DNA of 64,000 bases from an uncultured Burkholderiaceae bacterium (GCA_965653625.1 CBFHAS010000002.1:2335-66334), one strand, 5' to 3'; shown: positions 36,017 through 53,936, counted from the first letter of the stretch. Program-made: numbers and translations. Notes: a model not told the origin generated them from the sequence alone.

Positions 36017-36814
36017 ATGCCCGCCACCGAGTTCTGGCTCGAAGAGATCTGCCGCATCGCGCGCCACGCGGGAGAGGTCGTGATGGCTGTGTACGCGCAC
36101 GATTTCGCGGCGCGGCGCAAGCGCGACGACTCCCCCGTGACCGAGGCGGATGAAGCCGCCGAGGCGCTCATCGTGCCCGCCTTGCAGCAGCTGGCGCCGG
36201 GCCTCTCGGTCGTGGCGGAGGAAGCCGTCTCTGCCGGCCGGGTGCCTGCGATCGGGGCGCGCTTCTGGCTGGTGGATCCACTCGACGGCACGCGCGAGTT
36301 CCTGGCTCGCAACGACGAGTTCACGGTGAACATCGCGCTGGTCGAGCAAGGCGCGCCTGTGATGGGCGTAGTGCATGCCCCGGCCCTGGGCGTGCTCTAC
36401 GCCGGGGGCGCCGGACTCGGCGCCTTCACCGAGGACGCGGCCGGCAGGCGCCCCATCCATTGCCGGCATGAGCCGACTGACGGCGCAACCATTCTGGCCA
36501 GCCGCTCGCATGGCGACCCGGCGGCATTGCAGGCGTTCCTCGCCGGCCACCGGGTAGCCCTGCTGCGCCACATCGGCTCGTCGCTGAAGTTCGGCCTGCT
36601 GGCCGCGGGCGAGGCAGACCTTTATCCCCGCTCCGGCAAAACGATGGAATGGGACATCGCCGCCGGCCATGCGGTGCTCGCCGCAGCCGGCGGCTCGGTG
36701 ACGGATCTCGCCGGCCAACCGATCCGCTACGGCAAGCCCGGCTTCGGCAATCCGCCCTTCGTGGCCCGCGGCTTGGCCAGCATCACGACGGGAGGAAGTC
36801 CACCGGCCACGTGA
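36017..36814 (+). CDS. cysQ: 3'(2'),5'-bisphosphate nucleotidase
   Basis: SPVTEAD, AEE, WLVDPLDGTREF, WDIAAG. Confidence 0.9.
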   Translation: MPATEFWLEEICRIARHAGEVVMAVYAHDFAARRKRDDSPVTEADEAAEALIVPALQQLAPGLSVVAEEAVSAGRVPAIGARFWLVDPLDGTREFLARNDEFTVNIALVEQGAPVMGVVHAPALGVLYAGGAGLGAFTEDAAGRRPIHCRHEPTDGATILASRSHGDPAALQAFLAGHRVALLRHIGSSLKFGLLAAGEADLYPRSGKTMEWDIAAGHAVLAAAGGSVTDLAGQPIRYGKPGFGNPPFVARGLASITTGGSPPAT

Positions 36815-37868
36815 CGACCATTTGATCCACGTCCTTCGTGCCGAAGTCGAACTGCCGGATGCGCGCGAGGAGCTTGGCCTCCAGCTGCGACGCCTTGAGC
36901 TCGCTGGAGACGACGCGGCAGTCGATCACCTGCCCGGCCGGTGAAATCTTCAGCTCCACCACGACCTTGCCTTGCAGCGACGGGTCATCGCGCAGCGCGC
37001 GGTTGTAGATGGCATAGATCGCGCCTTTGTTGCGCTCGAAGACGAGCTTGATTTCCTCGATGGAGCGGGAGACCTTGCCGCTCGAACCCTTGTGTAGCGT
37101 GCCGCCTTTGCCGCCCGGGCCGCCTGCGCCGTCGCCCTTTCCGCCGCCCCCACCGGCGCCACCGCCTCCGCCGCCCCCGGCCACGCCTTCGACCAGGGTG
37201 GTGGCACGGCCAGCGAGACCCCCGCCGCCGGTGTTGCGGCTGTATGCCGCCGTGTTGATGCCGCCGCTGCCGCCCGTTGCATTGGAGGTAATGAGCGAGC
37301 GCACCGGCGCGCCGGCCTCTCGTCCCGATCCCACGCCGACGCCGACTTCGGTACCTACGCCTGGCCCCTGCTTGATGTCCTGCTTCAATTGCACGGCAGC
37401 CGGTGCGCCACGCAGTTCGGCAAGCTGGTCGGCCATGGCGAGAAGGCCCACGCCGGCGGCCCGGCGCCGGGCGCCTTCAATCTCCCCGGGTGGGCGGTTC
37501 GGCAGCGGCCGGCGAGCCTCGGGCACCGGTGCTTCGCGCGAAGGTTGCGTCTTCACCGGCTCGGGCTTGCGGGTCGCGGCGGCCTGTGGTTGCTGCGGCT
37601 GCTTCTGGGCTTCGGACTCGACCTTGGGCTTGGGCGGCGGAGGCGGTGGCGTCTCGCGCTCAAGCACCAGCTTGGCAAGCCGGGGCGGCAGCTCCTGCGG
37701 CTGCGTGCGATCCGACTGGGGCCGGGGCAGCAGCAGGAAGATCAGACACAGCAGCGCACTGGCGCCAAGCACCCCATTGCGGATGCGGCGAAAGCGCGCC
37801 TCGTCCTGCGGCGACACCGCCCACGGCAGCACCGGCGCGCGAAACGACACGGCAAAGGTGGCACTCAT
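36783..37868 (-). CDS. TonB-like protein with AgmX/PglI-type C-terminal domain (GltG-like)
   Basis: Single N-terminal TM, Pro-rich then Gly-rich linker, C-terminal IYAIYNRALRDDPSLQGKVVVELKISPAG...WPVDF. Confidence 0.85.
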   Translation of the reverse strand: MSATFAVSFRAPVLPWAVSPQDEARFRRIRNGVLGASALLCLIFLLLPRPQSDRTQPQELPPRLAKLVLERETPPPPPPKPKVESEAQKQPQQPQAAATRKPEPVKTQPSREAPVPEARRPLPNRPPGEIEGARRRAAGVGLLAMADQLAELRGAPAAVQLKQDIKQGPGVGTEVGVGVGSGREAGAPVRSLITSNATGGSGGINTAAYSRNTGGGGLAGRATTLVEGVAGGGGGGGAGGGGGKGDGAGGPGGKGGTLHKGSSGKVSRSIEEIKLVFERNKGAIYAIYNRALRDDPSLQGKVVVELKISPAGQVIDCRVVSSELKASQLEAKLLARIRQFDFGTKDVDQMVVTWPVDFLPS

Positions 37869-38359
37869 GACGCCAGCTTCCTGGTCACAGCGAAGGACAC
37901 GTCGCTGAAGTTGGCCCGCGCGGCCGTGTACATGACCTTGCGAAGCAGCTGGTAGGGGATGTCCTTGTCACCCATGATGGTCACCGCCTTGGTCTGCGCC
38001 TGGTTTTCGGCGCGGATCACCTTGCGGCCGGCCTGCAGGTCGAGCTCGTCCTTGAGCGGCGCGATGAGGTCGCCCGCCGCGGCCATCACCTCGGACACCG
38101 AGGCGACCTTGCGGCCATCGACCACGATGTCGGTCTGGCTGATCATGACGACCACGGTCTCGCGCGGGCTCTTATCGGAGATCGACTGCGGCAGCTTCAC
38201 CGCCTTGGAACTCGGGAGAAGCTCCACGCCCGAGGCGCTGGACAGCAGGAAGAAGATGAGGATCGTGAAGATGTCGATCAGCGCGACCAGGTTGAGGTCG
38301 ACCGCCGACTGGTTGCGCGCGTGCCGCTCGGCGCGCTTTTGCAGCGGAGTGAGCTTCAT
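37865..38359 (-). CDS. ExbD/TolR-family protein (AglS-like)
   Basis: LNLVALIDIFTILIFFLL TM with conserved Asp; IMGDKDIPY. Confidence 0.88.
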   Translation of the reverse strand: MKLTPLQKRAERHARNQSAVDLNLVALIDIFTILIFFLLSSASGVELLPSSKAVKLPQSISDKSPRETVVVMISQTDIVVDGRKVASVSEVMAAAGDLIAPLKDELDLQAGRKVIRAENQAQTKAVTIMGDKDIPYQLLRKVMYTAARANFSDVSFAVTRKLAS

Positions 38360-38362
38360 GCG

Positions 38363-38857
38363 CTACTTCCTGGCGACGGGCGCGTCGCCGATGGAGATAT
38401 CGGGAAACAGCTCGATTTGCGTGACCTTCGGGCCGTTCACCTGCTGCGTCTCGCGTACCGCGTCCATCACCTGCACCAACACGTCGTAGGGCGTGTCGGG
38501 CTGGGCCAGCACGGTGGCGGCCACAGCCTGCGGAAAGCGGGCTTTCACCTGCTGCATGAGCGCAGACAACGCCTTCACGTCATAGCCGCCGGCGGTGTTG
38601 GGAATGCGCTGGATCAGGCCGCCGATGCGGTCGCCCACCTCCAGCGCATCGGGCCGGATCACGATCTCGAGCTTCAGGTCCTCGACCTTCAGTTGCTCCA
38701 CGGCGCCGGACGACTGGGCCGGCAGTGTGAGGTCGAGCACCGCCAGGCGGGTGAACACCGCCGTCGACAGCAGGAACGGCACGAGCACCACGATCAGGTT
38801 GATGAACGCGGTGACTTCGAGCGCCGCTGCGTGTTTGCGCAGGCGTCTGACACGCAT
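38363..38857 (-). CDS. ExbD/TolR-family protein (AglQ-like; TM Asp replaced by Asn)
   Basis: LEVTAFINLIVVLVPFLL TM; PDTPYDVLVQVMDAVR. Confidence 0.85.
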   Translation of the reverse strand: MRVRRLRKHAAALEVTAFINLIVVLVPFLLSTAVFTRLAVLDLTLPAQSSGAVEQLKVEDLKLEIVIRPDALEVGDRIGGLIQRIPNTAGGYDVKALSALMQQVKARFPQAVAATVLAQPDTPYDVLVQVMDAVRETQQVNGPKVTQIELFPDISIGDAPVARK

Positions 38858-38864
38858 GGTCGGC

Positions 38865-39524
38865 TTACCTGCCGGTGGTGGCGGTGGTCTCGGCCTTCAC
38901 GCGCTGCACCAGGTTCAGGAAGCTGATCTTGGCCGCCTCCAGACCGTCGACGATCTCGCTGGTGCGCGCCTGCAGGAAGGAGTGGATCAGCAGGAACGGA
39001 ATGGCCACCATCAGTGCGAAGGCGGTGTTGTTCATCGCGATGGAGATGGACGCCGAAAGCAGCTCCGCCTTCTCGGCCGGGTTGACCTGAGCCACCGCAG
39101 TGAAGCCCTTGATCAGGCCGATGATGGTGCCCAGCAGGCCCACCAGCGTGATCACGTTGGCAAATGTCGCGATGTAGTGCGTACGCCGCTCCAGTCGGGG
39201 CACGATTTCCATCATGCCCTCCTCCATGGCGGCATCGATGTCCTCGCGTCGGCCGGGGCTCTGCATGCGCGTGAGGCCGTTGGCCACGATCTTGCCGATG
39301 GCCGCGTCCGACTCGGAGGCCATGCCCAGCACCTCCTTGAAACGGCCGTTTTGCAGCATCGGCAGCAGCTTGGCCCACAGCTGCCGGTTCTGCGTGCGCG
39401 CCCGGCGCAGGAAGATGAAGCGCTCGATCGCGATGGCCAGGCCGGTCGACATGATGAGCAGGCTGGGGTAGATGAACAAGCCGCTGTCCTGAAAGAACTT
39501 CACGGCGGTCTGGAAGGCATTCAT
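38865..39524 (-). CDS. MotA/TolQ/ExbB proton channel protein (AglR-like)
   Basis: IAIERF; LVGLLGTIIGLI; ISIAMNNTAFAL. Confidence 0.92.
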   Translation of the reverse strand: MNAFQTAVKFFQDSGLFIYPSLLIMSTGLAIAIERFIFLRRARTQNRQLWAKLLPMLQNGRFKEVLGMASESDAAIGKIVANGLTRMQSPGRREDIDAAMEEGMMEIVPRLERRTHYIATFANVITLVGLLGTIIGLIKGFTAVAQVNPAEKAELLSASISIAMNNTAFALMVAIPFLLIHSFLQARTSEIVDGLEAAKISFLNLVQRVKAETTATTGR

Positions 39525-39586
39525 CGCTCACTCTTCTCCAATGACAAGAACTGCTGATTCAAAACACGCTTGCTCGGGACACACAT

Positions 39587-39892
39587 TCACTTGGGCGCAG
39601 GCGCGGGTGGCGCGCCCTGCGTGGCGGGCACGCGCACCAGGGCGTCGTACTGGATCCGGCGGCGAAACACGTCGCGGTCCACGGGCGCCAGCGTCTCATC
39701 GAGCACGCTGTCCACCGGGCGCCCGGCGAGCCCGCCAGGCAGCGGCTTTTTCCACGGCACGATGTAGAGCACCTTCGGCAATTCGCGATTGCCGATGATC
39801 TGCGTGCGATCGATGTCGGCGCGATCCTGGGCCCAGGCCGGGGCGGCCGGCATGAGGGCCGTGAACAGCAGTGCAAGCACGGCGTGCCTCAT
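39587..39892 (-). CDS. Small secreted protein (positional GltF/CglF equivalent)
   Basis: Signal peptide (APAWA); IIGNRELPKVLYIVPWK motif; ATGA-coupled. Confidence 0.7.
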   Translation of the reverse strand: MRHAVLALLFTALMPAAPAWAQDRADIDRTQIIGNRELPKVLYIVPWKKPLPGGLAGRPVDSVLDETLAPVDRDVFRRRIQYDALVRVPATQGAPPAPAPK

Positions 39893-40599
39893 TCCTTTTC
39901 CTTCTGGTTCAGCGCCACGGGGGTCGGCTTGCGGTTGCGCAGGTCAGCCACCCACTTGGAGACGGTGGCATCGCCGCCCGGCGACAAGCTCAGGTAGCGG
40001 TCATACAGGGCGAGTGCGCGCGCGCCATCGCCGAGGTACAGGTCGTGCAGGATGCCGAGGTTGAGCTGCGGCGCGGCGTAGTTCGAGTCCAGCGCGATGG
40101 CTTGCTCATAGGCTTGGCGGGCCTGCGTGAAGCGGCCTTGCATGCGGTACGTGATGCCTAGCTGGTTGAAATAGATCGGCTGCTGTGGGTTGGCCTTCAC
40201 GGCTTGCTCCAGCGCAGCGGCGGACTCATCGAGCCTGCCGGCCTGGCGCAGCAAGAGACCGAGGTTGGCGTGCGGGCCGCCCAGTTCGGGATGCGAGCCG
40301 GCGAGTGCGCGAAAGCCCTGCTCGGCCTGCGCGGTACGCCCGTCGCGCAGGGAGCGAAGCGCATCGTCGTACGCTCGCTGCACGGCCGGCGCCACGGGCT
40401 CCGCGGCAGTGCGCTCAGGCGTCGCCGTGACCGCGGCAGGCGCCGACTCGGCAGCGGCCGACGCGAACTGCCCGACCGGCACCATTTTGTACACGGCGTG
40501 CTTCAGAGCCTCGACCGGCTTGTCTGCGGACGCGCAGCCGACGAGTGCGAGGGCCAGCGCCATCGTCGCGCCGCGTTGTGTGCGTTCAGCGAATCGCAT
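39889..40599 (-). CDS. TPR lipoprotein (GltE/AglT-like)
   Basis: Lipobox LVGC; TPR repeats (NLGLLLRQAG, NQLGITYRMQG, NLGILHDLY). Confidence 0.8.
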   Translation of the reverse strand: MRFAERTQRGATMALALALVGCASADKPVEALKHAVYKMVPVGQFASAAAESAPAAVTATPERTAAEPVAPAVQRAYDDALRSLRDGRTAQAEQGFRALAGSHPELGGPHANLGLLLRQAGRLDESAAALEQAVKANPQQPIYFNQLGITYRMQGRFTQARQAYEQAIALDSNYAAPQLNLGILHDLYLGDGARALALYDRYLSLSPGGDATVSKWVADLRNRKPTPVALNQKEKE

Positions 40600-43405
40600 C
40601 GATCGCCCCCTCGCTGTGTTCGTTCTTGCCGTAACGCACCGGGCGTAGCTCGCGCAACGCAGTGAAGCTGCGTTGCACCCAGGTGTCGTAGATGCCGGCA
40701 GCCGCGCGCCGTGTGTTCACCTCGTGCAGCTCGGTGGCCTTCTCTTCGAACGGGAATGCCTGCTCCTCCAGCAGCACGTCGTACTGCTCGCGTTCCAGCT
40801 TGGACAGCTTCCTCGGCCGCTCGGACGCGAGAAGCGCGCGACCGAAATCCTGGTATAGCGACGCGGTGTGGAAGGTGGCCGCGGTGGTCACGTCAGCCAC
40901 GCCGTAGTCGGCCGCGACGGCGTAGGCTTTGAGCACCTCTTCCATGCGGGTCTTTTTCAACTTGAGCTGGCGCGCCAGGGGTTCCACCAGCGCGACCTTG
41001 CGGTAAGCCTCGAGCGTCGGCGCCGCCATGGCAAGCGCCGCCATGCCTCCCAGATACCGAGTGCGCGGCGTGCGTGCCGCGCCGCCTCGCTGGTCAGCCT
41101 GGAAGACTTCCTTCATCAGGGCCAGCTCGCGTGCGGATTGGCCCTCGGCGTGCGCGAGGCCGGCCAGGCGATAGCGCGCCTCGACCGATCGCTCCAGCGG
41201 CTGCGGGTACTTCTTCGCATAGCTTTCATAGGCGTTCGCCGCCGCGGCTCGCGAACCGCCCTTTTCGTGCAGCTCGGCCGCCTGCCAGAGAGCATCACGC
41301 GCCAGCGTCGCGTCATTACCGGTAGCCGCCAGGCGCTCGAGTTCGCTGGCAGCCTGCGACCACCGGCTTTGCTCCATGTAAGCCAGGGTCAGCTTGTTAC
41401 CTACCTCGCCCTGTAGCGGATGCTGCGGGAAGCGTCGGCGAAAGTCTTCGAGCCTGCGTGCAGCGGCGTCCCAGTCCTTCAGCCCGATGAGCGCGGCGGC
41501 CGCGTCGTACTGCGCCGCGACGCGCACGGCCGACTGCGGGGCGACCTGGCCCACGCGATCGAAATGCCCGACCGCCGTGCGCAACTCTCCTGCCTCGCGT
41601 GCCTTTTCACCCTGCTTGTAGACCGATGCCGCAAGCCGCTCCACCAGCTCGGAGCGACCTTTCTCCTTGTCGTCCCTGAGCGCCAATGCCTCGCCGTAAG
41701 CCTGCTCCGCGCGGTCAAACGTGCCGCGGTCGAAGGCCGTGTGCGCAATCACCGTCCACGCCACGCGGCGCTGTGCCGGCGACGCCTGCGGCTTGATGTC
41801 GAGCACCCGCTGCGCGACCGAGGCGGCTTCGCCGTCATTCATGGCGAAGAGCATCTCGGCTGCACGGGTCAGCACCGCTCCCGCACGAGAGTCGGCCGCG
41901 AAGGCATCGGCAAAGCGCAGCGCACTGGCGACCGCTTCGCGCTGCTGCGCGGGAAGATCACCGGCCGCGGCGCGCCTTTCCTGCTGCGCATGGGCGAGCA
42001 ACGCGGAGTAGCCTGCGTCGGCGCTGCGTGCGTGCGCGGGGTAGCCGTAGGCCGTCTTTTCGTACTCGGCGATGGCCTCGGCAAACCGCTGGTTCTCGAA
42101 CAACAGCTCGGCGAGGAGGAAGTTGTTGTGCGGCGCGTCGCCATCGTTGGGGAAGGACTCCAGCCAGGCGCGGTACCAGCGCACCGCCTCCTCGACATCG
42201 GCGCTGCTCCTGCTCTTTTGCGCAGTGGCGTGGCTGTGGCGCGCCAGCTCCGCCAGCTGCGTCTTGACCAGCGGTTGCGCGCGCCCCCAAGCCTGCGGAT
42301 TGGCGCGGCGGAAGTCACTGGCGATGCCGTAACGCACCACGTATTCCTTCTTGGCATCGAGGGCCAGCGTGCCGAACCCGGCCTGCTGGTAAATCTCGAT
42401 GACGCGCGTCTGCAGTTGGGGCGCCCGCTCGTGCAGCGGATGCTCGCGTGCGAACAAGGCAAAGGTGTCGGCCGCGTCCTTGACACGCTCCTGGCGCAGG
42501 TACAGCTCGCCGAGCTGCTCGTACACGCGGAACTCGTAGCTGCGCCTTTGCGGGCTGTCCATGTACGGGGCGATGGACGCCGCGCCTTGCAGGTTGGCCA
42601 GGCACAGGCTGGAGACGCGGAAGGTGTCCTCCACCAGCTCGCGGTCGGCGCGCGTGAGGCCCTTCAGGGTATCGAATCCGCCCTCGCCTTCGCGGTCAGC
42701 GACCTTTCGGTCCAGCACACCGAGGAAGGAGTGCAGCGCATCCTCCAGCCGGCCCTGTTTGAACAACGACCAGCCGTGCATGTACAGCGCGCGCTCGTGA
42801 TACGGGTTGCCGCTGTCGCCCTTCAGCACGGTGGCGTACGCCTGTTCGGCCTTCGCGTAGGCACGCATGGCAAACAGCAGCTCGCCGCGGCGGAAATGAG
42901 CCTCGTCGCCATGGTGAGTCGCCGGGTACTGGGCCACCAGCCGGTCGAGAGTTGCCAGCGCGGGTTCCAACTGGCCGCCTTGCTCGTGCGCGCGGGCCAG
43001 CTGATAGAGCACTCGATCGTTGGCCGGATTTTGCGGATAAGCCTTGAGGTATTCCTCGTAGCGCGCGATGGCGGCACGGTAGTCGGGGCCCGAGCCGGCA
43101 GCATCGCTGGCGCTCTGCCGGTCGGCACTGTCCATCTCGAGGTCCGCAATGCGGCGCATCGCATCGGCGCGCTGCGGCGCATGCGGCGCCACTTCGAGGA
43201 ACTTGCGATACGCGGCGATGGCCTGTTCCTCGCTGGGCGCGATGCCCGGATCCGGCTCCACCTTCACGCTGCGGCCTTCCAGAGTCTTGAGTGTGGGCGG
43301 CTCCGGCGGGATGGCGTTGCGCTTGCTGGCGCAGGCCGCCAGCCCGCACGCCACCATCACCGCGAGCAGCGCGCGGCCGGGGCTACTGGGGCTGCTGCGT
43401 CGCAT
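40586..43405 (-). CDS. Large TPR lipoprotein (GltD/AgmU-like)
   Basis: Lipobox LAAC; many TPR-like helical repeats; C-terminal LEEQAFPFEEKA. Confidence 0.8.
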   Translation of the reverse strand: MRRSSPSSPGRALLAVMVACGLAACASKRNAIPPEPPTLKTLEGRSVKVEPDPGIAPSEEQAIAAYRKFLEVAPHAPQRADAMRRIADLEMDSADRQSASDAAGSGPDYRAAIARYEEYLKAYPQNPANDRVLYQLARAHEQGGQLEPALATLDRLVAQYPATHHGDEAHFRRGELLFAMRAYAKAEQAYATVLKGDSGNPYHERALYMHGWSLFKQGRLEDALHSFLGVLDRKVADREGEGGFDTLKGLTRADRELVEDTFRVSSLCLANLQGAASIAPYMDSPQRRSYEFRVYEQLGELYLRQERVKDAADTFALFAREHPLHERAPQLQTRVIEIYQQAGFGTLALDAKKEYVVRYGIASDFRRANPQAWGRAQPLVKTQLAELARHSHATAQKSRSSADVEEAVRWYRAWLESFPNDGDAPHNNFLLAELLFENQRFAEAIAEYEKTAYGYPAHARSADAGYSALLAHAQQERRAAAGDLPAQQREAVASALRFADAFAADSRAGAVLTRAAEMLFAMNDGEAASVAQRVLDIKPQASPAQRRVAWTVIAHTAFDRGTFDRAEQAYGEALALRDDKEKGRSELVERLAASVYKQGEKAREAGELRTAVGHFDRVGQVAPQSAVRVAAQYDAAAALIGLKDWDAAARRLEDFRRRFPQHPLQGEVGNKLTLAYMEQSRWSQAASELERLAATGNDATLARDALWQAAELHEKGGSRAAAANAYESYAKKYPQPLERSVEARYRLAGLAHAEGQSARELALMKEVFQADQRGGAARTPRTRYLGGMAALAMAAPTLEAYRKVALVEPLARQLKLKKTRMEEVLKAYAVAADYGVADVTTAATFHTASLYQDFGRALLASERPRKLSKLEREQYDVLLEEQAFPFEEKATELHEVNTRRAAAGIYDTWVQRSFTALRELRPVRYGKNEHSEGAIDAIR

Positions 43406-45298: not shown

Positions 45299-45898
45299 CT
45301 ATTGCCACACTTTGACGTCGAACTCGGGCTGCAGCTTGCCGGCCGAATCTTTGATGCGCAGCTCGATGTACTTCGGATCGGTTCCCTTGTCGAAGCGCAT
45401 CGTCGCACCGCGCTTGTAGTCACGCGTGTGCGGCCCCCGGCCAGTGAAGAAGGCCACGAGCTCATGCGCGCCCGCCTTCAGGTTGCCCAAGTACAGGCGC
45501 TGCACGCCACCTCGATGCAGTGCCTGCACTTCCAGCGGTGTGTAGAGGTAGTTGGCCACCACCTTGTCATCGAGCTTGACCTGCACGGAATCCAGCTCGA
45601 AGAGCTTGCCCACGTCCATGGAGACGAACACCGCCACCTGCGTGCCGGCGGGAAACAGAAGCTCCTCTTCCAGCACCAACAGGTCGCGGTTGAGCTTGAT
45701 GACGTCGGCCTTGGCGTCCTGGACGCGCGTGTCGAGGCCGGTGCGCGAATCGGGCGCGCTGGCCGCCGAAGCGGCGGAGGCGGGCGAGGCGGGTGCCGCC
45801 ACCGCGGTCGGCGCTGCATCCGCGGCCTGCGCCAAGGGTGACCACGCAAAGCCGGCGAAGAGCATCGCGGCGAGGATCAAACGGCATCGAGTCAGCAT
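45299..45898 (-). CDS. Conserved secreted hypothetical protein
   Basis: Signal peptide (LAQA), Ala-rich linker, coiled coil LNRDLLVLEEELLFP, beta-rich C-terminus. Confidence 0.75.
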   Translation of the reverse strand: MLTRCRLILAAMLFAGFAWSPLAQAADAAPTAVAAPASPASAASAASAPDSRTGLDTRVQDAKADVIKLNRDLLVLEEELLFPAGTQVAVFVSMDVGKLFELDSVQVKLDDKVVANYLYTPLEVQALHRGGVQRLYLGNLKAGAHELVAFFTGRGPHTRDYKRGATMRFDKGTDPKYIELRIKDSAGKLQPEFDVKVWQ

Positions 45899-45912: not shown

Positions 45913-47073
45913 TCAGTAGGTCGCCGTCACGTACAGCTGGAGCACGTTGGCATTGAACGAATAGGGCTTTCCGCTGCGAACGTCGGTGAAGTCCTTGTAG
46001 CGAAAGTTCACCAGCTCCCATGCGCCGTGCGCCTTGAGCTCGTACCGGCCCGGCACGCGCTTCCAGTCGTACGAAAGCTTGGCGCCCAGCCCGGTGCTGG
46101 TGAACGTGCTGAGCTGCCGGTTGCGCGTGACGTAGAGCGTCTCCGCGGTGGCGTTGTCGCTGTAGAACAGGGCCTTGTCCTGCGTGTGCAACCGCAGCGT
46201 GGCATCGCCCAGCCAGCGCTCGCGGAAGTAGCGGCGGTAGCCGGCCTCCAGGGTGTGCGCCTTGATATCCCAGTTGTCCCAGAAATAGCGGTACTGGCCA
46301 TGCAGCGCGTCGCGCGAGCCCAGGTCGAACGCGGTGCGCAGCGAGAGGGCCCGCGACGAGCGCGTGCGCGGCAGCCGCTCCGGAACGGCGGCCCCGAAAA
46401 CACGCGCCACACGGTAGGGGCTGCCGAGGAAGCCGTCGTCGGCGATCACCTCGAAGTTCGCGCTCATGAGCCAGCGCGGCGTGAGGATCTGCGTGGCACC
46501 GAGGCGGTACTGCCAGTGCTTCACGTTGTCGAAGAAGCCGGGCGTGCCTTTCTGGCCGACCTTGTCGCTGGAGCGGGTGAAGCCCAGCGTCACGGTGGTC
46601 ATGCCGCCGAAGGTCTCCTGGCTCACATCGACACCGGCGCTCGAGACTTGGTAGTCGGGCTCCCGGCTGGTCGATGCCGACAGCGTGATCTGCGAATCGC
46701 GCACCACGTAGTCGGCGGCGAGGCCGTACTCCGTGCGTGTCTCCTTGTACGGGCTGGCGGTGGTGACTACGTCGATGGAGGCGCTGCTCACCGCATCGAC
46801 GTAGTACGACCCCGACAGCGAGACCTTGTCAGCCAGGCTCTTGCGCACCAGCAGCGCGGGGCCCGCGGCGGTGAGCCCGCCTCCCTTGTAGACGTGCAGC
46901 ATCGCCTCGCCGCTGTCCTCGGGCAGCGTCACTGCGCGGCCCGTGCCCGCGGCCAGCACGCCACCGAGCACTCCGGCAATCTTGGCCATGCCCGCATACG
47001 GCACCCGGCCCAACACCGCGCCGAGCCGGCGCCACGCGCGCAAGACGCCGACGCAGAGGCTACTTGCACCCAC
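45913..47073 (-). CDS. DUF3570-family predicted outer-membrane beta-barrel
   Basis: VDAVSSASIDVVTTASPY, SREPDY, alternating amphipathic strands, terminal aromatic residue; GTG start overlapping DUF4266 end inferred. Confidence 0.8.
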   Translation of the reverse strand: MGASSLCVGVLRAWRRLGAVLGRVPYAGMAKIAGVLGGVLAAGTGRAVTLPEDSGEAMLHVYKGGGLTAAGPALLVRKSLADKVSLSGSYYVDAVSSASIDVVTTASPYKETRTEYGLAADYVVRDSQITLSASTSREPDYQVSSAGVDVSQETFGGMTTVTLGFTRSSDKVGQKGTPGFFDNVKHWQYRLGATQILTPRWLMSANFEVIADDGFLGSPYRVARVFGAAVPERLPRTRSSRALSLRTAFDLGSRDALHGQYRYFWDNWDIKAHTLEAGYRRYFRERWLGDATLRLHTQDKALFYSDNATAETLYVTRNRQLSTFTSTGLGAKLSYDWKRVPGRYELKAHGAWELVNFRYKDFTDVRSGKPYSFNANVLQLYVTATY

Positions 47074-47302
47074 AGCCGCCTCCTTGCACGCCGGAACCAC
47101 CGCGCGATGCCTCACGCACGTCGCGCACGTGTTCACGATGCTTGTCGGGCAGCGCGGCGCCGCTGCCGAACTTCATGATCGGATCGGCCAGGCGCTCGCG
47201 CTCATATGGCTTGACCCAGGGCTCGATAGAGGCGCAGCCCCCCAACCCACAGGCCATGATGAGCGCCGCCAGCCGCGCTGCGATGAGGATGCGTGAGTTC
47301 AT
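47060..47302 (-). CDS. DUF4266-family small lipoprotein
   Basis: Lipobox LGGC, VKPYERERLADPIM, C-terminal GGGCGCK. Confidence 0.85.
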   Translation of the reverse strand: MNSRILIAARLAALIMACGLGGCASIEPWVKPYERERLADPIMKFGSGAALPDKHREHVRDVREASRGGSGVQGGGCGCK

Positions 47303-47814
47303 TCCTTCAGCAAGTCCCGGATCTGCTGCTCATAGGTCTGCTCCATGCCTTCGCGGTAGCCGCGGTGCAGGAAACGTGCGCGTCCATCGCGGTCGATGAG
47401 CACGGTGGCCGGCATGGCGCTCAAGTCGTACAGCCGGCTCACGCGCTTGTCGGTGTCCAGCAGCACAGGGAACTTCAGGCCGAGCCGCAAAGCCAGCTCG
47501 GCGGCAGCCTTCGCGTCCTCGTCGATGTTCACGCCCAGCAGCACGAAACCCGAAGGCCGGTACTTCTCGTACAGACGATTCAGATGCGGCATCTCCTGCC
47601 GGCAAGGGCCGCACCAGGTGGCCCAGAAGTTGACCAGCACCACCTGCCCGCGCTGCTCCTGCAAGCGCAGGTTGGGCCCGTCCACGCGGCGCAGCGTGAA
47701 GTCTGGCGCGGCAGCGAACAGCGCGACAGCGGACATCGCCGCCGACGCGCCAGCCGCCAGCGTGGCAGCCAGCAACGCGCGAGCGGCGCGGCGCAGGACG
47801 CATCGGTACGTCAT
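47299..47814 (-). CDS. TlpA/ResA-family thiol-disulfide oxidoreductase
   Basis: VNFWATWCGPC, cis-Pro AMPATVLID, N-terminal export signal. Confidence 0.92.
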   Translation of the reverse strand: MTYRCVLRRAARALLAATLAAGASAAMSAVALFAAAPDFTLRRVDGPNLRLQEQRGQVVLVNFWATWCGPCRQEMPHLNRLYEKYRPSGFVLLGVNIDEDAKAAAELALRLGLKFPVLLDTDKRVSRLYDLSAMPATVLIDRDGRARFLHRGYREGMEQTYEQQIRDLLKE

Positions 47815-47826: not shown

Positions 47827-48486
47827 TCAGAAGTAGTACGACAGCCCGGACGTCAGCTCCAGGTTCTGCGTGGTCTGCCGCCTGCCGAGCAGGTCGAGCG
47901 AGTAGATGTGGTCGCGCATGTCCACCTGCACCGACCAGCGATCGGCCAGCATGAGGCGCACGCCGAGGCCAAAGTTGAAGGTGTGCCGACGCTGCTCGAT
48001 GAAGCGTGTGCTGCCCACGCCGCCCATCAGATAAATGGCAGTGGCCTTGGCGCGATTGCTGCCGATGAAAACTTCGCCAGGCAGCACGTTGTAGCCGGCG
48101 GAGAAGTTGTAGTAGGTCAGCTTCTCCTTGGGACGTGTGAACACGCCGCCCGGCAGGATCTGGCGGAAGTTCTCGTCGCTCACGCGAGTCTGCGCCAGCG
48201 TGGCCTGCACGAAGATGTCTTCGCTGATGTGGTAGCCCAGGCGCATACCCGCCACCGCGCTGGACCCGAAGTTCTCTGTGGCGTAGGTTCCGGCAAACAG
48301 GCCGACCTCGATGTCCTTGGAGGGAAAGCGTGGCAGCGGGATCTGGCGCCGCTCGACTTGCGGCTGGATCACCTGATCGCCGGCGGGCTGCGGGGCCTGC
48401 TGAGCCAGCGCGGCGGCCGGCGCGATGGCGACGGCCGCCAGGAGAGCAGCGGCGAAGAGCGAGTCGACGGATGTCTTTGGGGTCAT
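47827..48486 (-). CDS. Outer-membrane beta-barrel protein (GltA/B/H-like OMP family)
   Basis: Signal peptide (ALA), about 8 amphipathic strands, C-terminal SYYF. Confidence 0.8.
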   Translation of the reverse strand: MTPKTSVDSLFAAALLAAVAIAPAAALAQQAPQPAGDQVIQPQVERRQIPLPRFPSKDIEVGLFAGTYATENFGSSAVAGMRLGYHISEDIFVQATLAQTRVSDENFRQILPGGVFTRPKEKLTYYNFSAGYNVLPGEVFIGSNRAKATAIYLMGGVGSTRFIEQRRHTFNFGLGVRLMLADRWSVQVDMRDHIYSLDLLGRRQTTQNLELTSGLSYYF

Positions 48487-48495: not shown

Positions 48496-49281
48496 TCAGA
48501 AGAAGAACGCGAGTCCGGCCGTGAAGGCCTTGAACTCGCTGCTGCGCGTGTCGGCCACAAAGGCGGTGTAGAAGGAGTAATCAGCGCGCAGCACGAAGCG
48601 CTCGGTGAGATGCCAGCGCAGCCCGATGCCGGCGTGAGCCAGCTTCGCGTCTGTGGGCAGCGCGCCCACGAGGCTCAGGTTCGGCACATTGCGGAACCTG
48701 CCGAAGCCCACGCCGAAGAAGGGCGACAGCCGCCGGTCGGACCACGGCTCGGACACGAGTCCGACATGCCAGAAGTCGCTGCCCGAGTACAAGCCCTGCA
48801 CCTGGCCCAGGTCGCCTTCGAGGCTGAGCGTTTCAGACACGCGCCAGCCGGTCCAGAGCTTGAGCATCGGCTTGGCATCGAAGCGGCCCCACGCGACGCC
48901 GAACTGCACCTTGCGGCCCAGGTAGTCGTCGAGCATCACGTCGCGGAAGGTCTTGGTGCCGCCTGCCTCCGTGAGCGTGGTTTCGAGCTGATGGCGATGC
49001 ACCCAGCCGACCTTGCCGCCCGCTGTGCGGACCTTGTACCAGTCGGTGTGGCGCAACTCGACCTCGATCCACTCAGAACGTGCGGCCACGAAGAAGACGG
49101 GGTAGCCGCGTCCCGGCCCGGTGCGAAGCTCGATGTACGGATCGGTGACTTGCAGTCTTTCCAGCGCCGGCTCGGCGGCACGCGAGGGCATGGCGGCCAA
49201 GGCACACCAGCCCAGGAGCAAGGCCGCCAGGATGCGCGGCACGGTGCCCCACAGGGTCATGAGCGAGGGCTGAAGTCTCAT
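48496..49281 (-). CDS. SH3b domain + outer-membrane beta-barrel protein
   Basis: IELRTGPGRGYPVF...WYKVRTAGGKVGWV (SH3b), then barrel ending LAFFF. Confidence 0.8.
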   Translation of the reverse strand: MRLQPSLMTLWGTVPRILAALLLGWCALAAMPSRAAEPALERLQVTDPYIELRTGPGRGYPVFFVAARSEWIEVELRHTDWYKVRTAGGKVGWVHRHQLETTLTEAGGTKTFRDVMLDDYLGRKVQFGVAWGRFDAKPMLKLWTGWRVSETLSLEGDLGQVQGLYSGSDFWHVGLVSEPWSDRRLSPFFGVGFGRFRNVPNLSLVGALPTDAKLAHAGIGLRWHLTERFVLRADYSFYTAFVADTRSSEFKAFTAGLAFFF

Positions 49282-49907
49282 TGGGTGTTGCAAGCCCCGT
49301 TGGACGTGAACATGGCGCTGCTGCCGGCGCTGCTGAACTCATCCTGGCCCTGCCCCACCGGATGCGTGATCCAGTACTGGATCAGCCGGGCATTCGGGTC
49401 TTGCGTGCTCTCGAAGATGAGCCCGCCCCCGTGCAACACCTGCATCACCAGCGGCTTGGTGAGAAGCCGGCTCTGCAGTGGCGTGCCCACGAGCACCGAG
49501 CCGCGCGCCGAGTAGTAGTTCTTGTACATGTCGGTCGCACGGATCGCCTCTGGCGTGTTCGCCGGGTCATCCACATCGACTTCGGCAGCCGCCGGAATGA
49601 CCCGGAAGGCGCCGCCGGTGCCGGTGGCGTTGTCATGGCAACCCGAGGAGGCACATGTGTTGGTGGACACCACACCCCCCTGTTGGATCTGCAACTGGGC
49701 CAGGAAGATCGGGTTGATGCACTTCTGGAAGTACACGAACGACAGCGACTGGCCCGTGATGCTTCCCGGGTTCTCGACCAGCGGAGGGTTGTCCAGCGGG
49801 TTCGAACCCGAGCCGCCACACGCGGTCAGCGCGAGCGCGAGTGCGGCCACGCCGAACGTGTGTCGCAGGGCAAGCGCACCGCGACGCCTCAGACGAAGGA
49901 TCGGCAT
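49278..49907 (-). CDS. Putative c-type heme lipoprotein (CX4CH)
   Basis: Lipobox LTAC; INPIF...TCASSGCH...SRLLTKP...LHGGG...IQYWI. Confidence 0.7.
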   Translation of the reverse strand: MPILRLRRRGALALRHTFGVAALALALTACGGSGSNPLDNPPLVENPGSITGQSLSFVYFQKCINPIFLAQLQIQQGGVVSTNTCASSGCHDNATGTGGAFRVIPAAAEVDVDDPANTPEAIRATDMYKNYYSARGSVLVGTPLQSRLLTKPLVMQVLHGGGLIFESTQDPNARLIQYWITHPVGQGQDEFSSAGSSAMFTSNGACNTQ

Positions 49908-49909
49908 GG

Positions 49910-52900
49910 TCAGGGGCAGCCTCCCTGGATCCAATTGAAGATGGTGGTGTAGCTGGCACTGCCCGCCGGCAGCACGGCAGTGCCCTGCCCCTGCGCGCCC
50001 GCGGGATGCGGCACCGTGGACGGACGCGATAGCAATGAATTAGACCCCGCATTGCACGCGTCGTTGATCATCGTCAGCGTGACGTTGTAGTCACCTTCCG
50101 GGTCACCGGTCAGCACGAAGCGGTTGTTGTTGAACGACGTGCCCGCCGCCACGCCATCGGCACCGCTGCCCACAGCCTGGTGGCAGCCCGACGCGCAGGT
50201 GCTGCGCAAGATGGGGAACACCTGCGAGTTGAATGTCGTCTCGCTGAGTCCGCTGATGGTGAGCACGCCGTTGCCGGGGCTCATCGGGTCGTTGTAGTAC
50301 TGCCCACCCAGATCCATCCACTCGGCGAGAAGGCGCTTCTCGGCCGCGTTGAGCATGGTCGCGTGATTCGGCGCGCCAGCCGGCGGATTTGGATGCGCTT
50401 CGAATGCGTCTGCGCCGGTCATGAGCCGCTCGCCGAAGAGGATTTCGGTGAGCCGGCTCTTGCGCGCCAAGCCCACGGCATCTCCTTCGCTGGCTTCGGT
50501 GCTCACGAGCGCCGGGCCGCGCTCAACCACCGGCACGCCGTCTTCGATGCGGGTGCGCGGCAGGCCGGTGTCGGTGTCGATCACCGGATCGCCCAACAGC
50601 AGTTCCTCATAAGAGGTGAGCCGGCCGGTGCCGGCCACGCCATTGCGCAGATCAAGCTTGGCCGGGTCGTTGTGGCACGCGGTGCAGGTGTTGGCGCCAC
50701 GGTTGCGCGCCCACAGGGGCTGGATGTGCTCGGGGTAGTTGATGATCCCGTTCACCGGCACCGCTGTGGCCAGGTCGTCAGCGGCGTTCGCGTTGCCGGT
50801 GTAGCGCAGAGAAATGGCGGTGCGCGCGGTGACGCCAGGCTTGGCGGTGTCGGCCCAACGATCGGTCCACAGCAGGTCGGCGAGACGGTTCAGCGCCGTG
50901 GGATCGTCCCGCGTCAGCGTGGAAGCCATTGTTTCGCCGGAACGATGCTTGGAGGCCATGGCAGCCAGCCAGCCTTCAGGCACGTTGTTCACGATGGCGC
51001 CGGAGTTCAGCGCAGCCCCGCGACGCGGGCTGTGGCAACCGTCGCAGGTGCGCCGCTCGCCGGGGCGCACCTGGATCCAGTTGGTGTGGGTCTGGAAGGC
51101 GCGACCTTTTTCGTCGATGACCGCCAGCGCGATCGGCACGTCGGCCGGCACCTTCAGCTTGAACGACCCATCGGGCTCGATGGGCATGTAGCCAAGGATC
51201 TGCTGCATCTCGAAGTCGGTTTCGCCAATGGCGCGACGCAGTCCCATGCTGCCGGACGGTGGAGCCACCGCGCGGGTGACGCGCACGAAACGCGCAGGCG
51301 CGCAGCGATAGGCCGGATCGGCCGGGTTTTTCATGCGCACCAGATCAGCCACCAGCGGCCTCGTGTCCAGCGTGTCGCTCGGGGCGATCTTGGGGATGGC
51401 GGTAGTGCAGCCCGGCGCGAGGTCGGCCGCTGTCAGCACTGGGTCACCCATGCGCCCGAGGCCATCGGTGTCGTAAACGCTGCGAACTTCGAGCAGGCCC
51501 TCGTTTGCGGTAGCAAGGTCGTCGTCGATTTGGGTCGGGTCGACCACGTTCGGCTCGTCGCGCGCCAGCAGCGCGACCGGGTCGGTGTACATGTACTCGG
51601 ACCCGCCGGGTGTCGCCACCGGACGCCACTTCTTCTCTGCCGGGTCGAACATGTAGATTGCGTAGGCGGGCGGCGCGGTGTCCTGCAGTTCATCGGCCTG
51701 CGCCTCGGCACGCGAGCGGTTTCGGTTGGAAAGCCTCGCGAGTTCATCATCGGTGAGTTCGGCGCAGGGAATCACGTCGCCATTGCGCGTGACTTCACAG
51801 GGCCGGAACGCTGCGAGCACACGGTCGGTGCCGTCCCACAGCGGGTACGGGGTGGTGACGCGCCCGAAGCGCGACAGCCCCCGCCCGATGCTCAGTTGCT
51901 TCTCGGGCTCTGTGGGCTGCGACTGGCCGCCCTGCGCCGGCACGAGCGAACTGCTCGGCGTGTTGTGCTCCGAGTAGTTCGCAACGTCGACGAACACCAG
52001 CGCGCCGCCCTCCCTCGTGCCCGACAGCGGCATGAGGTCCGACGACACGAAGCCTTTGTACTGACCCTTGGGATCCATGTCGCGCGGATGCAGGAAGCTG
52101 TTGCCTTCGCTGTGCGCGCCGTACAGCACAAACATGTCGGTGCCATCGGGCTTCACGCGGAAGATCTTGAAGTGGTTGCGCCCGCCGACGTGATCCCAGC
52201 GCGAGAACATGATGTCACCGTTGGGCCTCACCACCGGGTTGCGGTCGTGGCTCTGGTTCACCGAGATCTGAACGATGTTGCCGCCATCGGCATCCATGGT
52301 GTGCAGGTTCATCACCCGCTCGCGCTCGTATTCATCGAGCGCGAAGTAGGTGCGGTCCAGCGCCTGCTTGCTCGACTGCAGCTGACGGTTCGACGTGAAC
52401 ACGAAGCCGCGCCCACCAGGAAGATAGACCGGGTCGGCGTCGTCGTCCTGCGTGGAGTGCGTCAGGCGGCGGAACGTACCGTTGGCCAGGTCGCTGTCGG
52501 TGGTGTCGTATTCCCAGATATTCCATCGCCCGGTACAGGCAGGCTGCCCTTCGATGGTGGACGTGTTGTCCGTCGGGCATCGCATGGCGAAGACGATTTT
52601 CTTGCCGTCGTACGACACCTCGGGGTCGGAGGCGTCTCCTTTACCCTGCGTGAAGCGCTCGGTGATGTTGATCTCCGGCGCGCTGGGCGAGGACTTCTCC
52701 CGAATGATGAGGTCACCGCCGGGCGCGGTGGGTGCGCCGTTGGTGGGATTCGCCTCGATTTCGGTGGATCGCTTCACATAGGCGATGGGCACATCGCCCT
52801 GCACCGTCACTTCGCCACTGCCGCTGCCGCAGCCCCCCACGGCCCCGACGAGCGTGGCTACGGCCAGTGCGAACGCACCCCTGCCTCCGATGTATTTCAT
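49910..52900 (-). CDS. Hydrazine synthase alpha-like lipoprotein: PD40/TolB propeller + HZS-alpha-like middle domain + cytochrome c domains
   Basis: Lipobox VGGC; PD40-like repeats (DPEVSYDGKKIVF, DPVYLPGGRGFVFTS, NPVVRPNGDIMFSRWDH); PIEPDGSF...VPAD...WIQVRPGERRTCDGCH; CTACH; CASGCH. Confidence 0.78.
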   Translation of the reverse strand: MKYIGGRGAFALAVATLVGAVGGCGSGSGEVTVQGDVPIAYVKRSTEIEANPTNGAPTAPGGDLIIREKSSPSAPEINITERFTQGKGDASDPEVSYDGKKIVFAMRCPTDNTSTIEGQPACTGRWNIWEYDTTDSDLANGTFRRLTHSTQDDDADPVYLPGGRGFVFTSNRQLQSSKQALDRTYFALDEYERERVMNLHTMDADGGNIVQISVNQSHDRNPVVRPNGDIMFSRWDHVGGRNHFKIFRVKPDGTDMFVLYGAHSEGNSFLHPRDMDPKGQYKGFVSSDLMPLSGTREGGALVFVDVANYSEHNTPSSSLVPAQGGQSQPTEPEKQLSIGRGLSRFGRVTTPYPLWDGTDRVLAAFRPCEVTRNGDVIPCAELTDDELARLSNRNRSRAEAQADELQDTAPPAYAIYMFDPAEKKWRPVATPGGSEYMYTDPVALLARDEPNVVDPTQIDDDLATANEGLLEVRSVYDTDGLGRMGDPVLTAADLAPGCTTAIPKIAPSDTLDTRPLVADLVRMKNPADPAYRCAPARFVRVTRAVAPPSGSMGLRRAIGETDFEMQQILGYMPIEPDGSFKLKVPADVPIALAVIDEKGRAFQTHTNWIQVRPGERRTCDGCHSPRRGAALNSGAIVNNVPEGWLAAMASKHRSGETMASTLTRDDPTALNRLADLLWTDRWADTAKPGVTARTAISLRYTGNANAADDLATAVPVNGIINYPEHIQPLWARNRGANTCTACHNDPAKLDLRNGVAGTGRLTSYEELLLGDPVIDTDTGLPRTRIEDGVPVVERGPALVSTEASEGDAVGLARKSRLTEILFGERLMTGADAFEAHPNPPAGAPNHATMLNAAEKRLLAEWMDLGGQYYNDPMSPGNGVLTISGLSETTFNSQVFPILRSTCASGCHQAVGSGADGVAAGTSFNNNRFVLTGDPEGDYNVTLTMINDACNAGSNSLLSRPSTVPHPAGAQGQGTAVLPAGSASYTTIFNWIQGGCP

Positions 52901-52940
52901 GGTTCCCCTCAACTGTTCCGATTCGACGAGCGAGTCGCGT

Positions 52941-53936
52941 TCATGCCGGTTTGGCTGGCGCGGCGGCCAGCAGCCCGGACGAGTAATGCAGTTCTCCAGC
53001 AGCGTCGACCACGACAGCGTCGACTCCCTCCAGCGACTCCACGAGCCGCATTCCTTGTTCGACGCCCAGCACGAACACCGTCTTCGACATCGCCTCGGTG
53101 GTCAGGCCGTCGGCGGCGACGATGGTCACGCTGTGCACGCCCGACGGTGACTTGCCCGTCTTCGGGTCGATGAGGTGATGGCACCGCTCGCCGTTCACCT
53201 CGAAGTAGCGCTCGTAATCGCCTGATGTGGAGAGGGCCAGGTCTTCGAGCGGCAACATGGCCACGACCTCTCCTTCCCGCCGCGGATGGCGGATGCCGAT
53301 GGTCCAAGGCCGGCCCCGCCGGTCGCCAATCACACGGCTGTCGCCGCCGGCAGTCACGATGGCATGGGCAATGCCACGTCGGCGCAAGATGGCCGCACCC
53401 ATCTCCACCGCATGGCCCTTGGCGAAACCGCCGAGATCGATGCGAACACCTTCGCGGGCGAAACGAACGCTGCGGTGCCGAGGATCGAGCTCCAGGTGTC
53501 GCCAGCCGACGGCGTCGCGGGCGCGTGCCAAAGCGTCTTCAGTCGGCCGCACGCCTTGCCGGTAGTCGTACAGCTGGCCGGCACTCGCAAAGGTGATGTC
53601 GAACGCGCCACCCGACAGACTCGAGAATTCGATGGCGCAGGCCAGCAGGTGGAAAAGTTCCTCGCTCACCGGTACCGGCGCGGCGGCGGCCTCGCGGTTG
53701 ATGCGGGAGAGATCCGAGTCGGGCCTGAATGGGCTCATGGCGCGGTCGATGCGGTGCATCTCGGCCATGACCGCATCGATGGCCGCCTCTCCGGCCGGGC
53801 GATCCTCGCTCCACAGCTCCACGCGGATGGCGGTGCCCATGATCGCCTCGTCGCGTGCGAGCCAACCGGCCTCTGCACGGGCGCGAGAACCACTCGAACC
53901 GGCGTGCGGCGCCGGCGCCAGGAACCCGAAGCGCAT
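52941..53936 (-). CDS. apbE: FAD:protein FMN transferase
   Basis: MGT, IDLGGFAKG, AGGD, STSGDYERYF, HHLIDPKTG. Confidence 0.93.
   Translation of the reverse strand: MRFGFLAPAPHAGSSGSRARAEAGWLARDEAIMGTAIRVELWSEDRPAGEAAIDAVMAEMHRIDRAMSPFRPDSDLSRINREAAAAPVPVSEELFHLLACAIEFSSLSGGAFDITFASAGQLYDYRQGVRPTEDALARARDAVGWRHLELDPRHRSVRFAREGVRIDLGGFAKGHAVEMGAAILRRRGIAHAIVTAGGDSRVIGDRRGRPWTIGIRHPRREGEVVAMLPLEDLALSTSGDYERYFEVNGERCHHLIDPKTGKSPSGVHSVTIVAADGLTTEAMSKTVFVLGVEQGMRLVESLEGVDAVVVDAAGELHYSSGLLAAAPAKPA

Follow-up and report, generated by a model that had tools for sequence, protein, structure and literature searches.

Described systems related to the locus

A core complex related to the Agl–Glt gliding machinery of Myxococcus was described by Luciano et al. 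(2011, PLoS Genet 7:e1002268; PMC3169522). It comprises gltC, gltD, gltE, gltG, aglR, aglQ, aglS and one extra gene, and is found as a single operon in one betaproteobacterium, several gammaproteobacteria, Geobacter and Fibrobacter. Outside the myxobacteria the complex has no assigned function (PMC3169522; bioRxiv 10.1101/2020.07.22.216333), and the core alone is argued to be insufficient for motility (Luciano et al., 2011). Here we describe a 17-gene operon from an uncultured Burkholderiaceae bacterium in which a homologue of this core is joined to a module of predicted flavin, thiol and haem proteins. The operon lies in a 64,000-nt stretch of DNA (GCA_965653625.1 CBFHAS010000002.1:2335-66334; G+C 62–71%), which was analysed as a whole and is called the window below.

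Two further lines of published work bear on the locus. Clusters of genes for ApbE and DUF3570 along with thioredoxin-like and DUF4266 proteins, termed ‘DsbD systems’, number about 543, and DsbD is present in 227 of them (Méheust et al., 2021, eLife 10:e66878; PMC8238504). A DUF3570 protein of Chlorobium receives flavin from its ApbE at two [S/T]GA[S/T] motifs, as was found by experiment, and the function of the cluster was left open. ExbB, tetratricopeptide repeat (TPR) proteins and hydrazine-synthase-like proteins are not mentioned in that work (PMC8238504). In Myxococcus, the beta-propeller lipoprotein CglB is exposed by GltA, GltB, GltH and GltK under AglRQS and GltG/GltJ (bioRxiv 10.1101/2020.07.22.216333; Commun Biol 2025, 8:119).

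The operon, whose genes are numbered g1–g17, brings three gene sets together, and these co-occur and remain linked over many families. Profile comparisons identify g9–g17 as a motility-free homologue of the Agl/Glt core complex of Myxococcus, and g1 with g6–g8 as a flavinylation cluster of the published ApbE/TlpA/DUF4266/DUF3570 kind, though of a divergent subtype. To these, g2–g5 contribute a multihaem lipoprotein of the HZS_alpha type, a second, small lipoprotein with haem and a pair of small outer-membrane barrels. The 17 genes very probably constitute one functional envelope-spanning unit, and not two neighbouring systems. The best explanation overall, which we hold with a little under even confidence, is that a Glt-like motor, driven by protons, acts on a flavin/haem module of the outer membrane.

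Organization of the operon

The operon spans positions 36783–53936 on the minus strand, with g1 at the 53936 end. All 17 co-oriented open reading frames (ORFs) that a first-pass annotation had placed there are present, and its gene order and domain list were borne out in full when the Pfam and NCBIfam model libraries were applied to the 17 products. The genes are as follows.

g1, 52941–53936, minus strand: ApbE, flavin adenine dinucleotide:protein flavin mononucleotide (FMN) transferase (Pfam PF02424, 277 bits)
g2, 49910–52900, minus strand: haem lipoprotein with a TolB-like propeller, an HZS_alpha middle domain with CDGCH, and two cytochrome-c-like domains (CTACH, CASGCH) (PF18582, 71 bits; weak PD40; lipobox VGGC)
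g3, 49278–49907, minus strand: small lipoprotein with a CASSGCH (CX4CH) motif (motif only; no Pfam or NCBIfam family)
g4, 48496–49281, minus strand: putative outer-membrane protein with an N-terminal SH3 domain and a small beta-barrel (SH3_3, 34 bits; OMP_b-brl weak; C-terminal FFF)
g5, 47827–48486, minus strand: small outer-membrane beta-barrel of the ‘OMP_myx_plus’ family (TIGR04565, 137 bits, cut-off 60; OMP_b-brl, 29.4 bits)
g6, 47299–47814, minus strand: TlpA/ResA-type periplasmic thiol-disulfide oxidoreductase with WCGPC (Redoxin and AhpC-TSA, 98 bits)
g7, 47060–47302, minus strand: DUF4266 lipoprotein with C-terminal GGGCGCK (PF14086, 69.8 bits)
g8, 45913–46989, minus strand: divergent DUF3570 outer-membrane barrel of 16 predicted strands, 358 aa (PF12094, 116 bits)
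g9, 45299–45898, minus strand: periplasmic protein, modelled by AlphaFold2 (AF2) as a long helix and a beta-sandwich (no Pfam, NCBIfam or PDB match)
g10, 43383–45293, minus strand: secreted helical/TPR protein of 636 aa, GltC-sized (weak TPR_19)
g11, 40586–43405, minus strand: TPR lipoprotein of 939 aa, GltD-like by size (TPR_6, TPR_19, YfiO; YbgF and BamD models)
g12, 39889–40599, minus strand: TPR lipoprotein, weakly GltE-like (TPR families; NF033758 GltE, 45 bits against a cut-off of 225)
g13, 39587–39892, minus strand: small secreted core protein (no Pfam or NCBIfam family)
g14, 38865–39524, minus strand: ExbB/TolQ/AglR-type proton channel (MotA_ExbB PF01618, 88.7 bits)
g15, 38363–38857, minus strand: ExbD/TolR paralogue with Asn at the position of the transmembrane Asp (PF02472, 50.7 bits)
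g16, 37865–38359, minus strand: ExbD/TolR paralogue with the transmembrane Asp kept (PF02472, 57.6 bits)
g17, 36783–37868, minus strand: GltG-like TonB-family transducer (NF033768, AgmX/PglI C-terminal domain, 63.9 bits against a cut-off of 40)

With the starts chosen, the junctions from g1 to g17 measure 40, 2, -4, 9, 12, -4, 70, 14, 5, -23, -14, -4, 62, 7, 3 and -4 nt. ATGA overlaps number four, as the first-pass annotation had stated; however, its seven overlaps become six among the 16 junctions, and its upper limit of 62 nt for the gaps becomes 70 nt, figures that depend on the start assigned to g8. A signal peptide or lipobox can be seen by eye in g2–g13, which agrees with the statement that most products carry Sec or lipoprotein signals; the ApbE product of g1 is the exception, with no obvious signal. 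No sigma-70-like promoter was seen inside the operon, and terminator-like sites within it are fewer than chance would give (six, against 10.6 expected from shuffled sequence). No riboswitch was revealed when the operon and its leader were scanned against Rfam, the lone match being a chance one to mir-17 (E=0.62).

Co-occurrence of the redox and core genes

The distribution of the genes was followed in 400 genomes of the class, sampled evenly and drawn from about 300 families. Around each of the 91 g9 hits, 10 kb of sequence to either side was searched with iterated hidden Markov models of the 17 proteins, and gene architectures were read from these. The g9 profile matches 76 of the 400 genomes, 55 of which carry what is termed here type-1 g9, i.e. 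a score of at least 170 bits, a threshold fixed after the data had been seen. Redox genes are within 10 kb in 38 of the 41 type-1 loci that have enough flank. At least four arrangements occur among these: the full order 1–17; 2 4 5 6 7 8 (1) 9–17; 2' / 1 9–17; and 5' 4' 2' / 9–17, where primes denote divergent genes. In the divergent arrangements the DUF3570 gene is 11–29 kb away on the same contig, and in many loci the apbE gene is directly before g9.

The Pfam DUF3570 hits in the 400 genomes separate into 53 canonical, high-scoring proteins (above 165 bits) and 62 divergent, low-scoring ones (about 85–155 bits). Not one of the canonical proteins is encoded on a g9 contig (0/53), whereas 59 of the 62 divergent proteins are found in g9 genomes, 43 of them within 29 kb of g9. 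HZS_alpha is present in 50 genomes, and 47 of these are type-1. Viewed from the core, the divergent DUF3570 accompanies type-1 g9 in 53 of the 55 genomes and HZS_alpha does so in 47; 46 genomes have g9 together with both. The co-occurrence spans roughly 45 families, with Fisher tests, in which kinship is ignored, giving p values of about 1e-49 to 1e-58. It is far beyond what shared ancestry and random drift of gene order would leave. The proposal of a fused machine was to be abandoned, in the terms of the first-pass annotation, if its redox and motor halves rarely co-occur in other genomes. In the sample the halves co-occur almost always, in many families and despite rearrangement.

Low-scoring, or type-2, g9 loci present a different picture, 29 of 34 having the core only. 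The tree of g9 has one group of 66 rows, of which 55 are redox-linked, and another of 30 rows, of which 3 are linked; support for its backbone is weak.

The redox half

The sole match of g2 among PDB sequences is HzsA (5c2v_A, E=5e-11), which covers the middle domain and its CxxCH motif; further weak matches, collinear with the first, involve the propeller as well as the C-terminal cytochrome domain. All 26 g2 orthologues tested contain HZS_alpha. CxxCH motifs number two or three per orthologue, and most orthologues have a lipobox. The CX3CH motif at the third site of g2 (50180–50197, minus strand) and the CX4CH motif of g3 (49635–49655, minus strand) are peculiar to the clade of the window; the 35 g2 orthologues checked in the class sample have canonical CxxCH only. 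The g3 gene is found only in loci whose g2 bears three haem motifs, and its product seems to be the C-terminal cytochrome module of g2 in free-standing form. In rearranged loci, g4 keeps company with g2 and g5.

The thiol components are also conserved. WCGPC is present in 83 of 114 g6 orthologue ORFs, and a C-terminal GGCGC[NK] in 92 of 98 g7 orthologues. The only DsbD_TM match in the genome is on another contig (C32), away from the operon.

Candidate FMN sites in g8 are S71 (DAVSSAS) and S79 (DVVTTAS). Throughout the divergent DUF3570 subfamily the first site reads D-x-[IV]-S-[SG]-A-S, and the second follows DV[VIL]-[TA]-x-[AG]-S. The AF2 model of g8 (predicted local distance difference test, pLDDT, 91; predicted template modelling score 0.84) is a 16-strand barrel with no plug, and its fold resembles the PelB, FadL, CymA and AlgE barrels. 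Both serines are in an 11-residue loop that joins strands 3 and 4 of the model. By the usual topology rule for outer-membrane proteins, this loop would be extracellular loop L2 or a segment that faces the lumen.

The same genome has a second DUF3570 copy, of the canonical type and with SGAS and SGAT motifs (G000, contig C19:1-9000; L005). The order in this module is TlpA and DUF3570, followed by GH5 cellulase, GH6, Cip1-like and pectate lyase genes and then ApbE. Judged from its gene content, the module links a barrel of the presumed flavinylated type to secreted enzymes that degrade plant cell walls.

The core half

The product of g9 had been listed merely as a secreted protein. The secretion signal is there, and in addition g9 is a member of the core half. 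It heads the core in loci without the redox half, among them that of a genome with g9–g17 only (G300, see below), and therefore belongs with the core; it is the first gene of this half and its best marker. The AF2 model (pLDDT 85) has a long helix and a beta-sandwich. A fold search with the model gave generic beta-sandwich matches only, none at E<=0.001, and the g9 profile had no match among PDB sequences. Homologues of g9 form 1172 clusters at 50% identity.

In the loci read, g10 always comes after g9, and it has more than 4467 homologues. By its size and position only, it may be a counterpart of GltC. The three TPR proteins g10–g12 follow the size order of GltC, GltD and GltE, and only generic TPR models pass their cut-offs. 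Both g9 and g13 belong to no family and always accompany the core, g13 being kept in 130 loci. The operon thus includes, like that of Luciano et al., an extra gene without a family, and either g9 or g13 might be their ‘additional gene’.

The motor genes encode an ExbB/TolQ-type channel and two ExbD/TolR paralogues, and g14–g16 also score against TolQ/TolR models. At the transmembrane site of g15, Asn (codon 38798–38800, minus strand) is found in all 60 near orthologues and in 55 of 59 distant ones. At the corresponding site of g16, Asp (codon 38273–38275, minus strand) is kept in 59 of 60 near orthologues, the remaining one having a gap, and in all 58 distant ones. Since the Asn/Asp asymmetry of the pair is conserved, it is a design feature of this motor family and not a local mutation.

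The transducer g17 has a short cytoplasmic N-terminus of about 30 residues, one transmembrane helix, a linker rich in Pro and Gly, and the AgmX/PglI C-terminal domain, whose model is passed. This agrees with the likeness to the Agl/Glt core proposed in the first-pass annotation, as well as with its statement that homologues outside the myxobacteria have no assigned function (PMC3169522; bioRxiv 10.1101/2020.07.22.216333). The equivalog models for GltG (43 bits against 650) and GltJ (28 against 450) are not reached, and TonB_C, at 23.9 bits, is just below its cut-off of 24.6.

Close relatives and neighbouring genes

To cover close relatives, an alignment of 12 g9 sequences was scanned over one genome per species. 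At least 585 loci were obtained and the best 80 examined; these 80 are all from Burkholderiaceae/Sphaerotilaceae (Piscinibacter, Rhizobacter, Methylibium, Caldimonas, Rubrivivax and Pelomonas). All 17 genes are detected by tblastn in each of the 43 related loci of at least 20 kb, at 45–90% identity. One 19-kb locus (L073, CAVVAQ010000016.1) has no g1–g4, the only close relative with enough flank to be so lacking. The record is labelled as a metagenome-assembled genome of an uncultured Nitrospira; the locus is betaproteobacterial, and thus the contig is probably mis-binned.

The 17 proteins were also compared by tblastn with three other Burkholderiales genomes that bear a GltG-type tail. One of these, from another family (G128), has all 17 genes in the same order, at 56–79% identity. 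In the second (G295) the core is present and the contig stops inside g11. The third (G300) has g9–g17 only, at 28–43% identity; its upstream genes are divergent, and DUF3570 is found nowhere in the genome.

The same genome encodes a 767-aa lipoprotein with Ig-like and propeller-like repeats, whose gene starts 3 nt after the GltG-like gene (L003/L004, G300:C5, about 69100–71400). Perhaps this is an alternative cargo. Its position hints that cores may take different lipoprotein partners.

The operon is bordered downstream by a convergent inositol-monophosphatase gene and upstream by a divergent ccmA–ccmB pair (window 54176–55634, plus strand). No further ccm genes come after the pair, and a phasin gene is next. 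Despite the suggestive role of ccmAB in haem export, the adjacency is probably incidental, as it is retained in only seven related loci.

A proposed mechanism

We propose that reducing equivalents enter the periplasm by the DsbD encoded elsewhere, on contig C32. TlpA would receive electrons from DsbD and hand them on to the CGC tail of the DUF4266 lipoprotein, from where they would reach FMN on the DUF3570 barrel and finally the haems of g2 and g3, or they might take the reverse path. ApbE would attach FMN to at least Ser71 of the barrel, in loop L2, which is on the outer or lumenal side in the model. The g4 and g5 barrels are envisaged to hold the g2 and g3 haem lipoproteins at the outer membrane, and the motor could reach this module via g17 and the g10–g12 TPR scaffold. 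There it might gate, expose or assemble the haem lipoprotein, much as the Glt platform exposes CglB in Myxococcus. That the motor gates, exposes or assembles the outer-membrane module is a tentative proposal, made by analogy, in which our confidence is from somewhat to clearly below even.

Several observations weigh against a motor-driven redox module of this kind. In distant loci the ApbE orthologues bear clear Sec signal peptides; those of the Sphaerotilaceae clade, g1 included, show no recognizable Sec, Tat or lipoprotein signal (N-terminus, 53840–53978, minus strand). The g8 motifs are at the usual place but read SSAS and TTAS; the usual Gly is absent at both, and the second site is degenerate. 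The g4 and g5 barrels are likened to GltA and GltB by size and adjacency alone, while the direction of electron flow and the contact between haem and flavin are pure conjecture. The post hoc type-1 threshold and the neglect of kinship in the Fisher tests belong here as well. It should also be pointed out that the motor genes g14–g17 are not adjacent in 13 of the 38 type-1 loci with enough downstream room, and thus the redox genes are tied most tightly to the periplasmic scaffold g9–g11(–g13) and not to the motor. In addition, type-2 cores exist without any redox genes; redox chemistry is therefore not intrinsic to the core.

Seven of these 13 genomes (G588, G407, G591, G412, G695, G345 and G550) hold a second, type-2 g9 locus. 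In the split genomes, redox genes and g9–g11(–g13) are found with no motor at L127, L130–L133, L135 and L136, and the second g9 loci are L145–L148, L154, L165 and L167. Most of the second loci in the seven genomes, though not all, encode the ExbB/ExbD/GltG motor.

Alternative explanations

The main rival is energized import, which we consider unlikely. Here a TonB-like motor would drive the uptake of a metal, a chelate or another redox compound via one of the outer-membrane barrels, and the flavin/haem/thiol module would reduce or transform the substrate, either on the surface or within the periplasm, in the manner of reductive iron or metal assimilation. The TonB-family C-terminal domain of g17 and the presence of ExbB/ExbD fit such a role, and the g8 fold is like that of the substrate channels FadL, CymA and PelB. 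Flavinylation clusters are also often found with iron uptake, and 25 DUF3570 clusters carry the VIT1 iron transporter (PMC8238504). However, no family match in the operon (Pfam/NCBIfam) points to a TonB-dependent transporter, with its plug and 22-strand barrel, or to an inner-membrane permease or a periplasmic binding protein. TonB import systems have nothing that corresponds to the three large TPR proteins or to g9 and g13, and the nearest characterized relatives, Agl–Glt and Nfs, act outwards.

Envelope maintenance is a second alternative, and an improbable one. A Tol–Pal-like core would position or stabilize outer-membrane parts, the thiol/flavin/haem module would repair or mature oxidized proteins or lipids, and g2 would be a periplasm-facing detoxifier (e.g. 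of N-oxides or peroxides). TlpA-type redoxins usually serve maturation or repair pathways, which favours this idea, as do the match of g11 to YbgF/CpoB and BamD TPR models, the scores of g14–g16 on TolQ/TolR models and the resemblance of the g2 propeller to TolB. Yet the operon has no Pal or TolA-like gene, and the predicted flavin sites are on the long-loop side of the g8 barrel. Furthermore, the divergent DUF3570 and HZS_alpha seldom occur apart from this core, and such dedicated partners speak for a specific enzyme system more than for general maintenance.

Two independent adjacent systems, co-inherited with no functional coupling, might be suggested by the fact that each half is also found alone: canonical DUF3570 clusters without the core, type-2 cores without redox genes, and the genome with g9–g17 only. 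This is very improbable in view of the near-complete co-occurrence of the DUF3570 subfamily and HZS_alpha with type-1 g9 over some 45 families, and of a linkage that has outlasted at least four rearrangements, including a shift of ApbE to directly before g9. A gliding or surface-motility machine like Myxococcus Agl–Glt is the least credible reading and is rejected: g14–g17 and the TPR proteins are homologous to AglRQS and GltG/GltE, but the equivalog scores are far under the cut-offs (GltG 43 against 650, GltE 45 against 225), g17 with its roughly 30 cytoplasmic residues is without the FHA-containing cytoplasmic part of GltG, no group A parts (GltF/H/I/J/K-like genes) were recognized in the operon, and the core alone is argued to be insufficient (Luciano et al., PMC3169522).

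Significance

The components themselves are members of known families. What appears to be undescribed in the open-access and bioRxiv literature is their conserved coupling, along with the dedicated subfamily of DUF3570 and an HZS_alpha lipoprotein as a partner common to them. No paper that links the flavinylation cluster with the core complex was found in the open-access and bioRxiv literature, and the link of redox genes to the core was not found in Luciano et al. or in later Agl–Glt papers. The first-pass annotation had proposed an undescribed machine; this seems to hold for the coupling, whereas the redox half had already been published. Its assignment of flavinylation to ApbE was sound, DUF3570 being a proven ApbE substrate (PMC8238504).

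Two published orphan systems, the core complex of 2011 and the DUF3570 cluster of 2021, would thus be partners. The core complex gains a candidate cargo in the propeller haem lipoprotein and the outer-membrane barrels, and the flavinylated barrel gains a candidate partner for energy and assembly. One may go further and ask whether the ancestral job of the gliding-motor core was to run an outer-membrane redox device, with the motor gating or exposing a multihaem lipoprotein wired via a flavinylated barrel and a thiol relay. We think this possible but rather unlikely. If true, the device would represent a new class of energized trans-outer-membrane electron conduit, distinct from the porin-cytochromes of the MtrCAB type, and Myxococcus would have later adapted the outer-membrane ‘exposure’ mechanism for the adhesin CglB. 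Carriers of the system are in culture (Piscinibacter aquaticus KACC 15278, Pelomonas candidula BYS78W and Piscinibacter sp. XHJ-5), and therefore ordinary genetics can be brought to bear on what the gliding motor did ancestrally and on what covalent flavin does in an outer-membrane barrel.

Comparison with known systems

The g2 protein resembles HzsA (PDB 5C2V) in its collinear order of a propeller, a middle domain that ends in CxxCH and a C-terminal c-type cytochrome domain. It differs in being a lipoprotein with an extra cytochrome module, and the NF052339 equivalog model gives 52.9 bits against 800. An anammox or hydrazine reading is rejected: the equivalog model fails and the middle domain alone matches. 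HzsB and HzsC were not recognized within the operon, and no genome-wide search for them was made.

With the clusters of Méheust et al. the operon shares all four families, each above its Pfam cut-off, as well as the C-terminal CXC of DUF4266 and two tandem DUF3570 motifs at the same place. In place of the canonical [ST]GA[ST], the subfamily has S-[SG]-A-S at the first site and [TA]-x-[AG]-S at the second, and there is no adjacent DsbD. A further difference is that the cluster is tied here to a Glt-like core and to an HZS_alpha haem lipoprotein.

The likeness to the Glt platform of Myxococcus consists of two adjacent small barrels, a GltC-sized TPR protein, a putative cargo lipoprotein that begins with a propeller, and a drive by the proton-motive force via a TonB-like arm. 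GltB, GltA and GltC have 275, 256 and 673 residues, compared with 261, 219 and 636 in g4, g5 and g10. GltH and GltK were not recognized in the operon, and the cytoplasmic track proteins are lacking. The candidate cargo is a multihaem protein and not a VWA adhesin, and a 16-strand barrel of the flavinylated type and a thiol relay are added.

There is also a likeness to the Agl/Glt core complex. Both have, in this order, TPR proteins, ExbB, two ExbD proteins and a GltG-type TonB-like protein in one operon, and both include extra small genes without a homologue in the Myxococcales. The core is broader in distribution than was listed in 2011, with 76 of 400 genomes of the class in this sample against one betaproteobacterial and several gammaproteobacterial genomes at that time. 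What sets the present operon and most type-1 loci apart is that the core is joined to a flavin/thiol/haem module and two small barrels.

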